Part shown: positions 26,356 to 32,527 of the stretch, piece after piece
Layout of the letters: the number at the start of each line of letters is the position of its first letter
Position numbering within the stretch: position 1 is the stretch's first letter
From: Dehalococcoidia bacterium
GTDB taxonomy: Bacteria; Chloroflexota; Dehalococcoidia; GIF9; UBA5629
Length of the DNA: 64,000 nt
Direction of reading: 5' to 3'
Assembly (NCBI GenBank): GCA_050011565.1
Contig: JBEKIW010000001.1
Span: 640,207 to 704,206, forward strand
Notes under the pieces: model-generated
Seen by the model: only the letters and a program-made list of their open reading frames with translations
The model's database searches: none
What the model was told of the DNA's origin: nothing
Position numbers and translations under genes: made by a program

Positions 26356-26384
26356 TTGCCAAATCGTGCAATAATGTATAAAAT
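26356..26384 (+). promoter_or_regulatory. Candidate promoter (TTGCCA-N17-TAAAAT) for tRNA-Arg and the downstream por-nuoEF operon
   Basis: The hexamers have ideal spacing and lie 8 nt upstream of the tRNA 5' end. The ORF-track 'start' at 26356 is in fact the -35 box. Confidence 0.4.
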
Positions 26385-26392
26385 TATCCGAA

Positions 26393-26464
26393 GCCCCTGT
26401 AGCTCAGGGGATAGAGCGCCGGCCTCCGGAGCCGGGTGCGAGGGTTCAAGTCCCTCCAGGGGCG
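26393..26464 (+). tRNA. tRNA-Arg (anticodon CCG); CCA not encoded
   Basis: The cloverleaf is GCCCCTG acceptor, anticodon loop CUCCGGA and T-loop TTCAAGT. Coordinates may be off by 1. Confidence 0.75.
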
Positions 26465-26484
26465 CTTCCAAGGAATTCAGTAAT

Positions 26485-29479: not shown

Positions 29480-29931
29480 CTATGAATGAAAAAGTTACCG
29501 CTATCGTCAACAAATACAATGGTGACAGGGGACAGCTAGTTTCCATACTTCAAGATATCCAGACTGAATGCTATTACCTTCCCGAAGAAGCTTTGATTGA
29601 AGTAAGTGATACCATGGGCATTCCTGCCAGCCGTGTTTACGATGTGGCCACTTTTTTCAAAGCATTCAGTCTTGAACCTAGAGGTAAGCATTTAATCAAC
29701 GTTTGTCTGGGCACGGCCTGCCATGTCCGTGGTGGTAGCAGGGTGTTGGAAACTGTGGAACGATGTTTGTCCGTCAAGCGCGGGGAAACCACTAAAGACC
29801 GCAAATTCACACTGGAGACAGTTAATTGCATGGGCTGTTGTGCCGTGGGGCCGGCGGTGAAAATTGACGGCGATTATTATGGACATATGAGCACTGATAA
29901 AGTGGACGGTATATTAGCCAAATTTGAATAA
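29476..29931 (+). CDS. NuoE-like [2Fe-2S] thioredoxin-fold subunit (NADH dehydrogenase 24 kDa / HymA family)
   Basis: It has the NuoE fold with Cys ligands (CLGTACHVRGG...CMGCCAVGP). Its ATG overlaps the porB stop. Confidence 0.8.
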   Translation: MTMNEKVTAIVNKYNGDRGQLVSILQDIQTECYYLPEEALIEVSDTMGIPASRVYDVATFFKAFSLEPRGKHLINVCLGTACHVRGGSRVLETVERCLSVKRGETTKDRKFTLETVNCMGCCAVGPAVKIDGDYYGHMSTDKVDGILAKFE

Positions 29932-31806
29932 TTGCTAAAAGATGAAATGCCAAACCAGCTAAGTTCAAAACAAGATTTAGAGGCTCTACGAAAAGAGCTG
30001 ATAAAAGAAAGAAGGCCGGACAAGCCGCTAATTGCCATATGCAATGGTACTGCTTGCCGTCCTTACGGTTGTATCCACTTAACCGAGGCCATTAAACAGG
30101 AACTGGCAAAACAAGGCCTGGAGAATAAGATAGGACTGAGAATCACTGGTTGTCACGGGCTATGCGAGAAAGGCCCGATTGTAGTAATTCAACCGGGTGA
30201 CATTTTCTACCAGCAGGTAAAATTAGAGGACGTGCCTGAGATATTAAGTGAAACGGCTATTAAAGGCACTGTCATTGACCGGCTGCTTCACGCCGACCCG
30301 ATTACGGGCAACAAAGTTGTGCATAGGGATGAAATTCCGTTCTATCGGAAGCAAGTACGGAATATTCTGGGAAACAACGTCGAAATAAATCCTACGAAGA
30401 TAGAGGATTATATCGCTATAGGGGGCTATACAGCTCTAGCCAAAGCCTTGCTCGAAATGACTCCTGAGCAGATAATAGACGAAATAAAACACTCGGGATT
30501 AAGGGGGCGAGGCGGTGCTGGTTTCCCCACGGGATCAAAATGGGAATCATGCCGTCATGCCCCCGGGGATATAAAATACGTTATAGTAAATGCTGACGAA
30601 GGTGACCCGGGAGCCTATGCTAATGAAGGTTTGCTTTCAGGTAATCCGCACAGCGTACTCGAAGGTCTAATCATCGGTGCTTATGCCATCGGAGCCAAGC
30701 AGGGATATGTTTACGTCCGTAATGAATATCCTTTAGCATTGGCTAACGTGACGCTGGCTCTAAATCAGGCCGAACAGTCGGGGCTGCTCGGGGACAATAT
30801 CCTGGGCTCAGGGTTCGATTTTAATGTCCGTATCAACAGAGGCGGTGGAGCCTTCGTGTGTGGTGAGTCCACGGCCTTGATGGCATCGCTCGAAGGCAAA
30901 GTTGGAGAACCGAGAGCTAAATACGTTCATACGGTAGAGAAGGGGCTGTGGAATCGGCCGAGTGACCTAAACAACGTCGAAACCTGGGCCAATGTGCCAT
31001 TGATAATCAATAAAGGTGCCGATTGGTATCGAACTCTGGGCACTGAACACAGCAAAGGGACAAAGATATTCTCTTTAGTGGGCAAGATTAATAACACGGG
31101 CCTGGTTGAAGTTCCTATGGGGATAACACTCAGGGAAATCATCTATGACATAGGTGGCGGCATATGGGGAGGAAAGAGATTCAAGGCGGTTCAGACCGGC
31201 GGTCCATCAGGCGGATGTCTGCCAGAGAGCCTGCTTGACCTACCGGTAGATTTCGATGAGTTGTCTAAAGCAGGTTCCATGATGGGCTCGGGCGGCATGA
31301 TTGTCATGGATGAAACAACCTGTATGGTTGACATCGCCAAGTATTTTCTCACCTTCCTGGAAGAAGAATCTTGTGGTAAGTGTCTGCCCTGTCGCGAGGG
31401 GATAAAGAGAATGCGGCAGGTATTTGATGAAATAACGGAAGGCCGAGGCAGTGAAAAAGATATCGAGTTTCTGGAGCAGCTTTCAGCTACTTTAGTTGAT
31501 AGTTCACTCTGCGGGCTAGGCCAGACAGCGCCAAACCCTGTTCTGACCACAATGCGTTACTTCAGGGACGAGTACGAAGCTCATATAAAAGAGAAGAGGT
31601 GCCCCGCCGGCGTCTGCAAGGCTTTAATCCACTACTACATAATAGAAGAAAAATGCCCGGGATGTGGACTTTGTGTCAAAGAGTGTCCACAAGAGGCCAT
31701 AACCTTCATGGGCAAGAAAAAGCCGGTGGTTATGGATGAATCGAAATGTATAAAGTGCGGTGTTTGCGGCGACGTCTGTAAGCTGGATGCCGTAGGTAAG
31801 AGATAA
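29932..31806 (+). CDS. NuoF-like NAD(P)H-binding FMN/[4Fe-4S] subunit (51 kDa / HymB family) with N-terminal 2Fe-2S and C-terminal 2x[4Fe-4S] domains
   Basis: It has the GRGGAGFPTGSKWE NADH/FMN motif and a SLBB domain. C-terminal CPGCGLCVKECP and CIKCGVCGDVC ferredoxin motifs are present. Length is 624 aa. Confidence 0.8.
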   Translation: MLKDEMPNQLSSKQDLEALRKELIKERRPDKPLIAICNGTACRPYGCIHLTEAIKQELAKQGLENKIGLRITGCHGLCEKGPIVVIQPGDIFYQQVKLEDVPEILSETAIKGTVIDRLLHADPITGNKVVHRDEIPFYRKQVRNILGNNVEINPTKIEDYIAIGGYTALAKALLEMTPEQIIDEIKHSGLRGRGGAGFPTGSKWESCRHAPGDIKYVIVNADEGDPGAYANEGLLSGNPHSVLEGLIIGAYAIGAKQGYVYVRNEYPLALANVTLALNQAEQSGLLGDNILGSGFDFNVRINRGGGAFVCGESTALMASLEGKVGEPRAKYVHTVEKGLWNRPSDLNNVETWANVPLIINKGADWYRTLGTEHSKGTKIFSLVGKINNTGLVEVPMGITLREIIYDIGGGIWGGKRFKAVQTGGPSGGCLPESLLDLPVDFDELSKAGSMMGSGGMIVMDETTCMVDIAKYFLTFLEEESCGKCLPCREGIKRMRQVFDEITEGRGSEKDIEFLEQLSATLVDSSLCGLGQTAPNPVLTTMRYFRDEYEAHIKEKRCPAGVCKALIHYYIIEEKCPGCGLCVKECPQEAITFMGKKKPVVMDESKCIKCGVCGDVCKLDAVGKR

Positions 31807-31807
31807 G

Positions 31808-32527
31808 ATGGTAACTTTCAATATCGACGGCCGTGAATTTAAGGCTGAGGAAGGCCAGACGATACTCCGGGTGGCGAGAGAAAACGGCATTGATATACCT
31901 ACCTTATGCCATCACGAAGCCATTGAGCCCTACGGTGCCTGCAGGCTGTGTATTGTAGAAGTCTCCAAGGGGCGCCGCTCCAGAATTGTGACATCCTGCC
32001 TTTATCTGGTTGAAGAGGGACTGGAGGTAAAAACAAACTCGCCCAGGGTGATAAGTAATCGCAAAATGCTGGTGGAGCTGCTTCTAGCACGATGCTCGAA
32101 AAACAAGGTAATAAAGGAATTGGCTGCGCAGATGGGCATTGAGCAATCAATAATTAGACCGGAGTACCTGGAGGACAATGATTGTATGGTTTGCGGATTA
32201 TGCGTCAGGACCTGTGAACAAGTCGTTGGCGTTAGCGCCATCAGTCTGGTCAACCGAGGTATAACCAAAGAGCCGGCGTCGCCTTTCTTGGAACCGGCTA
32301 GAGATTGTATAGGTTGCGGCTCATGTTACTATGTATGCCCAACCGGCGCCATAAAGATGGAAGATAGAAACGGCACCAGAATAATATATAACTGGAAAGT
32401 GGAATTCAAGCTCAAGAAATGTAAAGTCTGCGGCAACTACTGGGCGCCGGAAAAGCAGTTAGAATACATCAGAAAAAAGTGGAATTTACCCGACGATTTC
32501 TTCGATATTTGCCCCACCTGCAAATAG
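31808..32527 (+). CDS. NuoG N-terminal-like iron-sulfur protein ([2Fe-2S] plus [4Fe-4S] only, 239 aa). It has no hydrogenase or formate dehydrogenase catalytic domain.
   Basis: It has a 2Fe-2S ferredoxin fold (CHHEAIEPYGACRLC) and 4Fe-4S motifs (CMVCGLCVRTCE, CIGCGSCYYVCPTGA). It stops at 32527, so no H-cluster domain follows. Confidence 0.7.
   Translation: MVTFNIDGREFKAEEGQTILRVARENGIDIPTLCHHEAIEPYGACRLCIVEVSKGRRSRIVTSCLYLVEEGLEVKTNSPRVISNRKMLVELLLARCSKNKVIKELAAQMGIEQSIIRPEYLEDNDCMVCGLCVRTCEQVVGVSAISLVNRGITKEPASPFLEPARDCIGCGSCYYVCPTGAIKMEDRNGTRIIYNWKVEFKLKKCKVCGNYWAPEKQLEYIRKKWNLPDDFFDICPTCK

Follow-up and report, generated by a model that had tools for sequence, protein, structure and literature searches.

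The Bfu enzymes have been defined as a family by Schut et al. (2022, PMC9304861), who placed in it an uncharacterized Type 2 member with a BfuB of clade 45, designated Por-Bfu. It comprises four Por subunits together with BfuABC, and in Dehalococcoides mccartyi its gene cluster is "sandwiched between two tRNA genes". The role proposed for Por-Bfu is the formation of pyruvate with the use of NADH and reduced ferredoxin, and the uniform expression of the D. mccartyi genes led to the proposal that it is one enzyme (PMC9304861). The WorA homolog of Por-Bfu has been described as having the zinc-finger motif but not the C-terminal helix (Feng et al. 2025, PNAS, PMC12318220). In this work we have analyzed a stretch of 64,000 nucleotides (nt) from an uncultured Dehalococcoidia bacterium (contig JBEKIW010000001.1, positions 640,207 to 704,206; the whole stretch is called the window, and coordinates are counted from its first letter). 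Part of it probably represents a Por-Bfu operon, in which a 2-oxoacid:ferredoxin oxidoreductase made of PorGD, PorA and PorB, most likely a pyruvate:ferredoxin oxidoreductase (POR), is paired with a bifurcating module BfuABC.

The locus comes close to the published description. Like the Por-Bfu of D. mccartyi 195 and of syntrophic Proteobacteria it combines the same gene content and order with a small BfuA carrying clusters A1, A2 and A4 only, and like the D. mccartyi cluster it is placed between two tRNA genes. The hosts predicted for Por-Bfu, Chloroflexi and syntrophic deltaproteobacteria, are also the host groups of the homologous loci considered here. Around the B1 and B2 motifs the window BfuB is closely similar to the "Dm Por" row that represents D. 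mccartyi Por-Bfu in the supplement of that paper, and its best PDB matches are to enzymes of Acetomicrobium mobile; it probably belongs to clade 45. The D. mccartyi cluster has seven genes and the window six, the gamma and delta subunits being fused in a protein of 295 amino acids (aa); the host, an uncultured Dehalococcoidia lineage, is also different. The arrangement, including the flanking tRNAs, has already been published, and the window is a further example of it and not a new enzyme class. What is new here is the conservation of the tRNA-flanked block across Dehalococcoidia, the promoter-like geometry around it, and the existence of sister lineages which have replaced BfuBC or are without it.

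Among enzymes of solved structure, WorABCSL, the tungsten aldehyde oxidoreductase of Acetomicrobium mobile (PDB 9MQX, PMC12318220), provides the best match for BfuA, the second-best for BfuB and the third for BfuC. It likewise couples a low-potential donor to NAD+ and ferredoxin, and its WorA shares with the window BfuA the lack of A3. Its third-substrate module is WorSL, whereas POR occupies that place here and no WorS polyferredoxin is encoded; WorA also carries 13 extra C-terminal residues forming a helix that plugs into WorS, and this helix is missing from the window BfuA. The bifurcating hydrogenases NiFe-HydABCSL (7T2R) and FeFe-HydABC (8A6T, 7Q4V, 7P5H) have full-length homologous BfuB and BfuC cores with the same FMN, B1 and B3-B5 ligands. 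Unlike them, the window has neither a hydrogenase subunit nor an H-cluster domain, and its BfuA has neither A3 nor A5 nor any of the alpha/beta C-terminal domain. At the B2 position NiFe-HydABCSL has Cys476 and the window Thr502, as in the Zn-site enzymes.

Por-Bfu would act at the acetyl-CoA/pyruvate node of syntrophic deltaproteobacteria and of Dehalococcoidia, which are abundant in sediments and important for bioremediation. If it truly couples pyruvate, NAD(H) and ferredoxin, it would govern the balance of low- and high-potential reductant when energy-limited anaerobes make or break pyruvate, and it would be a system in which to ask why Bfu enzymes bifurcate although their donors already have a low potential. 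The window gives a clean and complete example with fused PorGD, together with a transcription hypothesis and pointers to natural module-swap variants.

Organization of the por-bfu block

The elements of the block, all on the + strand, are as follows:
26356-26384, +, sigma-70-like promoter candidate TTGCCA-17-TAAAAT (10/12 matches), ending 8 nt before tRNA-Arg
26393-26465, +, tRNA-Arg (anticodon CCG), without encoded CCA (ARAGORN; Rfam RF00005, 67.1 bits)
26485-27372, +, porGD, fused gamma (POR domain) and delta (2x[4Fe-4S]) subunits, 295 aa, TTG start (Pfam, NCBIfam)
27375-28550, +, porA, alpha subunit, 391 aa (PF01855, PF17147)
28550-29479, +, porB, beta subunit binding thiamine pyrophosphate (TPP), 309 aa (PF02775, NF008819)
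29476-29931, +, bfuC, NuoE/HydC-like, 151 aa (PF01257, PDB matches)
29932-31806, +, bfuB, NuoF/HydB-like, 624 aa (Pfam domains, PDB matches)
31808-32527, +, bfuA, small WorA/HoxU-like, 239 aa (Fer2_4 and Fer4, match to PDB 9MQX_A)
32559-32587, +, second sigma-70-like promoter candidate TTGACT-17-TATACT, ending 9 nt before tRNA-Pro
32597-32672, +, tRNA-Pro (anticodon UGG), closing the block (ARAGORN; Rfam 68.7 bits)

A preliminary description of this DNA had drawn tRNA-Arg(CCG), porGD, porA, porB, the NuoE-like and NuoF-like genes and the gene for a 239-aa Fe-S protein as one head-to-tail unit, and this is borne out, with the tRNA at its head confirmed by ARAGORN and Rfam. The block start given there, 26356, has to be abandoned: it is the start of a mechanical open reading frame (ORF) that reads through tRNA-Arg, and it coincides with the -35 hexamer of the promoter-like site. 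The likely start of porGD is the TTG at 26485, a start conserved among the closest relatives of the window, with a Shine-Dalgarno-like AAGGA 10 nt upstream. The earlier gene list also lacked tRNA-Pro(UGG), which lies 69 nt 3' of the 239-aa gene.

The genes are very tightly packed. The stop of porGD (27372) and the ATG of porA (27375) are 2 nt apart; the porA TAG and the porB GTG have base 28550 in common (1-nt overlap); the porB TGA (29477-29479) overlaps the bfuC TTG (29476) by 4 nt; the bfuC TAA (29931) directly abuts the bfuB TTG (29932); and 1 nt separates the bfuB TAA (31806) from the bfuA ATG (31808). The earlier statement that start and stop overlap at every junction thus holds in a looser form: with the first possible starts all junctions overlap or are spaced by no more than 2 nt, whereas with the alternative starts (ATG 29482 for bfuC, ATG 29947 for bfuB) the spacing is up to 15 nt. 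At such junctions there is no space for an internal promoter or terminator, and the region has fewer terminator-like sites (5) than shuffled sequences lead one to expect (7.2).

The Por proteins contain all the domains of a four-subunit POR, i.e. alpha, beta (TPP and [4Fe-4S]), gamma and delta (2x[4Fe-4S]). PorGD matches PF01558 (6.9e-39) and Fer4 domains in Pfam and, in NCBIfam, TIGR02175 PorC_KorC (211.6 bits) and TIGR02179 PorD_KorD (95.8 bits), both over their cut-offs, with the eight Cys of the delta domain lying within positions 244-284; its PorG part scores 204.3 with the PorC equivalog model, below the cut-off of 270. PorA matches PF01855 (1.8e-74) and PF17147 and reaches 493 bits with PorA_Arch, under the equivalog cut-off of 550. 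PorB, in which C25, C28 and C53 were noted, matches PF02775 and exceeds the cut-off of 405 for NF008819, "pyruvate synthase subunit PorB", with 430.7 bits. Models for VOR and oxalate oxidoreductase also score on the Por proteins. Por is a 2-oxoacid:ferredoxin oxidoreductase whose substrate is most likely pyruvate.

Homologous loci (numbered L001 onwards) were collected by exact-protein look-ups and by a scan that took one genome for each GTDB species. Gamma and delta are fused in the window and its closer relatives and are separate genes in other Dehalococcoidia and in most deltaproteobacterial loci (L020-L023, L027, L033 and L035 were compared), as they are, according to the literature, in D. 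mccartyi.

Cofactor sites of the Bfu subunits and the predicted route of electrons

As judged from their sequences, the NuoE-like, NuoF-like and 239-aa proteins are a complete BfuBC core and a Type 2 BfuA. For all three the best solved relatives are bifurcating enzymes, matched over the full length, and all the features by which Schut et al. separated Bfu from non-bifurcating proteins (B2-B5, the signature His, C1) are present. BfuA, lacking A3 and A5 and having the zinc-finger motif, agrees with the definition of Type 2/clade 45 (PMC9304861, PMC12318220).

The 239-aa protein (Pfam domains Fer2_4 and Fer4) had been taken for a NuoG/HymC cut short. Instead it belongs, as a full-length protein ending at a true stop, to the WorA-type class of small BfuA: homologs in more than 120 clusters at 90% identity are 236-249 aa long and share a family-specific conserved C-terminus (KCKVCGNYWAPE...CPxC), so the protein is not truncated. 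Its best match among all PDB sequences is 9MQX chain A (WorA; E 4.7e-48, residues 5-239 vs 8-234), and all 16 ligand Cys are aligned between the two. They are C34/45/48/64 for the [2Fe-2S] cluster A1, C126/129/132/136 and C167/170/173/177 for the [4Fe-4S] clusters A2 and A4, and C205/208/235/238 in the C-terminal Cys4 motif, a putative zinc finger aligned to the zinc-finger Cys of WorA; the chain ends with K239, one residue past the last of them. The inventory of Cys gives neither the A3 motif H-x3-C-x2-C-x5-C nor A5. The seventeenth Cys of BfuA, C96 (in LLLARC), is found in 18 of the 20 Por-linked homologs and sits at the position of the A3 motif, where WorA has Ala.

That the block encodes no hydrogenase and that the 239-aa protein has no molybdopterin domain had been recognized before, and both points stand. 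A hydrogenase domain hidden by a frameshift was sought by a six-frame motif scan and by translation past the 239-aa stop, and none was found. In the six frames of the window there are no [NiFe] large-subunit motifs and no H-cluster motifs (TSCCP, MPCxxKxxE, ExMACxxGCxxG) apart from one chance SCCP at 1918, and downstream of the bfuA stop all three frames are closed, with no ORF in the 69 nt before tRNA-Pro. It is therefore hardly credible that the genes are the remains of an [FeFe]-hydrogenase (hym) operon that has lost its catalytic domain through a frameshift or a truncation. What speaks for it is the match of the N-terminal 187 residues to the model of group A6 NADH-dependent [FeFe] hydrogenases, which covers residues 2-187 only and reaches 140.8 bits against a cut-off of 765; the constant length of the homologs, their own conserved C-terminus, the closed frames and the missing H-cluster motifs speak against it.

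BfuC (PF01257, 3e-49) has as its best solved matches the C subunits of bifurcating enzymes (7t2r_C, 8a6t_C and 9mqx_C), and the ligands of its [2Fe-2S] cluster C1 (C77, C82, C118, C122) are invariant in 20/20 Por-linked homologs. BfuB contains PF01512, PF10531 (SLBB), PF10589, a Fer4 dicluster (residues 568-621) and an N-terminal PF01257 region (residues 27-107). Its full-length PDB matches are 7t2r_B (4.2e-239), 9mqx_B, 8a6t_B and the B subunit of NfnABC, whereas true NuoF proteins align to residues 153-556 only. The ligands of the [4Fe-4S] cluster B1 are C481/484/487/527; those of the [2Fe-2S] cluster B5 in the N-terminal thioredoxin-like domain are C37, C42, C74 and C78; and eight Cys at 575-616 of the C-terminal ferredoxin-type domain would hold the two [4Fe-4S] clusters B3 and B4. 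By alignment, C464, T502, H551, C557 and C562 correspond to C438, C476, H525, C531 and C536 of the B2/Zn site in 7T2R. Among the Por-linked homologs the His and the three Cys are each conserved in 20 of 20, and the remaining position is Thr in 17, Cys in two and Ser in one. The signature His of B2 is absent from non-bifurcating homologs, Thr is more common than Cys at the second position, and the characterized non-bifurcating homologs lack B2-B5 (PMC9304861). In general the hallmark Bfu ligands are invariant or nearly so in the Por-linked homologs, the main departures being frameshifted long-read assemblies and the B5 Cys of two Syntrophales loci. Two of the four B5 Cys are also missing in several BfuB homologs without por linkage (L029, L032, L039-L041, L044, L047). 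Such losses of B5 Cys conflict with the "absolutely conserved" set of BfuBC cofactors claimed in the literature.

Alternatively, the trio might supply the NADH-input (N) module that the 11-subunit complex I of Dehalococcoidia is missing, and lie beside por by chance. Dehalococcoidia complex I operons indeed lack nuoEFG, and yet this explanation is very improbable. BfuB misses the NuoF equivalog (TIGR01959, 472.3 vs a cut-off of 558.65), the NuoG model covers only residues 5-94 of the 239-aa protein, which has neither a NuoG C-terminal domain nor the His-ligated cluster, and the best structural relatives are the soluble Bfu enzymes. There are no nuo genes among the annotated ORFs of the window, and at 19/19 loci the trio is linked to por and at none to nuo.

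The HoxEFU diaphorase consists of the same NuoE/NuoF/small-NuoG-like trio, its HoxU (238 aa) falls in the size class of BfuA, and the JGI annotation of BfuA homologs is "bidirectional [NiFe] hydrogenase diaphorase subunit". The HoxU model nevertheless gives 134.8 bits on BfuA against a cut-off of 333 and covers residues 2-185 only, leaving the zinc-finger C-terminus unaligned; the HoxE equivalog also stays below its cut-off (134.8 vs 224), and the window has no hoxYH genes and no [NiFe] motifs. Phenylglyoxylate dehydrogenase PadEFGHI is similar in having a POR-family core wired to a pyridine-nucleotide flavoprotein; its nucleotide module is an FAD subunit, in contrast to the NuoEF/Bfu type (FMN and Fe-S) found here, and the Pad gamma, delta, alpha and beta models gave partial matches, all far under cut-off. 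In the eukaryotic pyruvate:NADP+ oxidoreductase PNO a POR-family core is joined to a domain like cytochrome P450 reductase (CPR) as the nucleotide module. Assignments of the HoxEFU, NuoEFG and Pad type were rejected on the curated score cut-offs.

The preliminary description had offered for the block either a dedicated path from pyruvate to NAD(P)+ or a bifurcating-type module. The latter fits the sequence, and the linear path is less likely because BfuB has all the extra cofactor sites (B5, the His551/Cys site, B3/B4). A non-bifurcating pyruvate:NAD(P)+ oxidoreductase, in which electrons would pass from Por through BfuA and FMN to NAD(P)+ and the additional clusters of BfuB would be relics or electron stores, would be exergonic when uncoupled, from about -500 mV to -320 mV (PMC9304861). 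NAD(P)-linked 2-oxoacid oxidoreductases do exist, e.g. the NADH-dependent phenylglyoxylate dehydrogenase families, and a variant locus described below (L024), with its GltD/NfnA-like NADPH module, looks just like such a linear enzyme. Against this, the ligands of the B2/Zn site (including His551), B3, B4, B5 and C1 are kept in the window and its Dehalococcoidia homologs, the characterized non-bifurcating homologs are those without B2-B5, and Wor-Bfu, the nearest relative to have been characterized, also has a donor of very low potential and yet reduces neither acceptor alone (PMC9304861). We consider the linear enzyme improbable.

For the favored Por-Bfu reading a route of electrons can be proposed on the model of the Wor-Bfu and NiFe-Bfu structures. 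Electrons from the TPP-dependent decarboxylation of pyruvate would pass to the [4Fe-4S] cluster of PorB and on to the two [4Fe-4S] clusters of the delta domain, from there through A4 and A2 to the [2Fe-2S] cluster A1 of BfuA, and then into the BfuBC core with FMN, B1, B5 and C1, where a hydride would be delivered to NAD+ and two low-potential electrons would leave by B3/B4 to ferredoxin (Fd). The reversible reaction would be 2 pyruvate + 2 CoA + NAD+ + 2 Fd(ox) <-> 2 acetyl-CoA + 2 CO2 + NADH + H+ + 2 Fd(red), with free ferredoxin as a predicted obligatory third substrate. In the cell the enzyme may work to make pyruvate and not to break it down (PMC9304861), and such a direction may apply in those Dehalococcoidia that assimilate acetate. 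The analysis establishes the gene content, the cofactor ligands, the homology to solved bifurcating enzymes and the conservation of synteny and promoter geometry; a physical Por-Bfu complex, bifurcation, the direction of the reaction and co-transcription of the genes are inferred.

Several observations weigh against the Por-Bfu reading. No purified or assayed Por-Bfu was met in the literature searched, where it is mentioned as a prediction (PMC9304861, PMC12318220). In the accessible part of the blue-native complexome of D. mccartyi CBDB1, PorA, PorB and PorG co-migrate and no Bfu subunits are reported alongside. The proposers themselves concede that the thermodynamic motive for bifurcating from a donor of -500 mV is unclear: with its potential of about -500 mV, pyruvate would suffice to reduce NAD+ or ferredoxin singly, although there is a precedent in Wor-Bfu, which has a donor of -560 mV and yet reduces neither acceptor alone (PMC9304861). 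The delta domain is the usual ferredoxin-docking site of free-standing PORs, by analogy with which transfer might go via free ferredoxin. PorA and the PorG part stay under the pyruvate-specific NCBIfam cut-offs given above, so the 2-oxoacid may be other than pyruvate. The Por-linked BfuB of L027 and L033 (Syntrophales/Syntrophaceae) have lost all four B5 Cys (G/S/S/D and G/G/S/D). An AlphaFold2 model of BfuA, built from an alignment of 12 sequences, had a mean confidence (pLDDT) of 59, falling below 50 across the Fe-S region, and was not used.

Conservation and variants of the locus

The order porG(D)-porA-porB-bfuC-bfuB-bfuA, in six or seven genes, was found in 19 non-redundant loci of two phyla with different surrounding genes, a recurrence by which chance arrangement can be set aside. 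One group is formed by about 14 Dehalococcoidia/Dehalococcoidales genomes, whose BfuA are 61-97% identical to that of the window, the closest being an uncultured Chloroflexi metagenome-assembled genome (97%); the other by five Syntrophales, Syntrophaceae or other deltaproteobacterial genomes (43-55%). All full-length BfuA homologs of at least 43% identity with sufficient upstream sequence are Por-linked, and remoter ones (up to about 54% identity), which match residues 1 to about 185 only, belong to other NuoEF-linked clusters without por.

Natural variants exist among the Dehalococcoidia. At L024 (3278-5227) and L026 a single 649-aa gene, lying between porB and a diverged bfuA, replaces bfuC and bfuB. 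It encodes a NuoF-type [4Fe-4S] domain fused to a GltD/NfnA-like Fer4_20 and FAD/NAD(P) module, with 9BOV_A, NfnA of 9N5U and 4YLF_B as the best solved matches, and the variant looks like a pyruvate:NADP+ version of the system. At L016 (1502-5426), in a Dehalococcoidales genome, the locus reads tRNA-Arg, porGD, porA, porB, bfuA, tRNA-Pro, with no nucleotide module and with a thiolase gene following. Both variants retain the flanking tRNAs, and no mention of either was found in the accessible portions of PMC9304861 or PMC12318220. The retention of BfuA with por where BfuBC is replaced or absent suggests that BfuA is the partner of Por and does not belong to an independent enzyme.

These comparisons bear on the main alternative to a single enzyme, namely that two co-expressed enzymes are encoded: an ordinary POR reducing free ferredoxin and a stand-alone BfuABC-like complex equilibrating ferredoxin with NAD(H). 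The latter would carry no third-substrate module, and BfuA would serve as a second entry for ferredoxin in the style of the HoxEFU diaphorase. In keeping with this, Por has a complete delta ferredoxin domain, no Por subunit is covalently fused to a Bfu subunit, the C-terminal helix by which WorA docks its partner is missing from BfuA, the CBDB1 complexome, as far as accessible, reported only the Por subunits together, and the best full-length analog of BfuA by size in NCBIfam is HoxU. The invariant gene order with its porB-bfuC stop/start overlap in two phyla tells against separate enzymes, as does BfuA staying with por at L024, L026 and L016. So does the pattern of its divergence: the window BfuA is 50-52% identical to the forms of L024/L026 and 71-72% to those of L011/L013, loci whose upstream regions are very similar to that of L024. 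On balance we regard two separate enzymes as rather unlikely.

Flanking tRNAs and neighboring genes

Wherever the upstream sequence sufficed for a measurement (13 distinct Dehalococcoidia loci), a spacer of 9-30 nt separates the 3' end of tRNA-Arg(CCG) from the inferred start of por, and the end of bfuA lies 42-92 nt before tRNA-Pro(UGG) in 15 distinct loci of this class; neither tRNA flanks the block at the five deltaproteobacterial loci. A sigma-70-like site precedes tRNA-Arg in 12 of 14 sequences (the window and 13 loci), ending 4-14 nt upstream and having the form TTGCCA or TTGACC, 17-18 nt, TAAAAT or TATCAT. Before tRNA-Pro such a site (TTGACT or TTGACC, 17-18 nt, TATACT) is found in 11/17 sequences and ends 8-10 nt upstream. 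The rate at random positions is 2.6%. The sites before tRNA-Arg are promoter candidates by consensus match only. Apart from a start codon (TTG, GTG or ATG) and a Shine-Dalgarno-like motif (AAGGA or GAGGA) the spacer between tRNA-Arg and por is empty, and its 9-30 nt are too few to hold a promoter. Between bfuA and tRNA-Pro no terminator-like fold was detected, folding there being no better than that of shuffled sequences (z = -0.11), and at gathering thresholds Rfam returned five tRNAs and no RNA leader or riboswitch.

The conserved promoter-like site together with the short spacer makes co-transcription the economical reading of this geometry: transcription would start at the conserved promoter before tRNA-Arg, and processing of the tRNA would then release the por-bfu message. 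Co-transcripts of tRNA and mRNA are known elsewhere, e.g. from the tyrU-tufB operon of E. coli, so that a tRNA-led operon is unusual and not unprecedented. tRNA-Pro has a promoter-like site of its own and may mark the 3' boundary of the block.

Two further readings are tentative, and we hold them to be possible rather than probable. One is that tRNA-Arg is an obligatory 5' leader of por-bfu throughout Dehalococcoidia. The operon may then have no promoter of its own and be driven by a promoter of the stable-RNA type, the 5' end of the mRNA, 9-30 nt before the start codon, may be made by 3' processing of the tRNA, and the downstream tRNA-Pro may form the 3' boundary instead of a terminator. If this is true, expression of an enzyme at the acetyl-CoA/pyruvate node would be tied to the transcription and processing of a tRNA. 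The other, separate from the first, is that the zinc-finger BfuA may be an adaptor docking POR, to which different nucleotide modules are attached, i.e. BfuBC, an SfrB/GltD-like NADPH module, or none.

Two other explanations for the placement between tRNAs were tried and rejected. A horizontally acquired island has no compositional support, the GC content being flat (0.47-0.52) over 20-40 kb, and a tie of the flanking tRNAs to the codon usage of the operon is not seen, CGG and CCA not being enriched.

The region of the window is part of the core housekeeping genome. On the + strand it also encodes an ADP-forming acyl-CoA synthetase-like protein (4380-5837; CoA_binding and Succ_CoA_lig) and a pgk-gpm-tpi cluster (56724-59886), both compatible with either direction of the pyruvate/acetyl-CoA reaction, and genes of the shikimate pathway and of tRNA modification are present as well. 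A second 2-oxoacid oxidoreductase locus on the - strand (45249-48945) comprises a 226-aa IorB-like (gamma) ORF, a 645-aa IorA-like protein (POR_N, TPP_enzyme_C, Fer4) and a 371-aa FrhB/FdhB-like flavoprotein; this trio, again an oxoacid oxidoreductase with a flavoprotein, also occurs near the Por-Bfu block in L001-L003. Upstream of the block a tandem pair of tRNA-Ser genes (GGA, CGA) lies on the - strand at 23270-23451, and the same pair is found upstream in L001. Between the pair and the block the window has a 917-aa ORF reading like a candidate P-type cation ATPase, and L001 an oxaloacetate decarboxylase beta/gamma pair, a CBS protein and a Na+/H+ exchanger.

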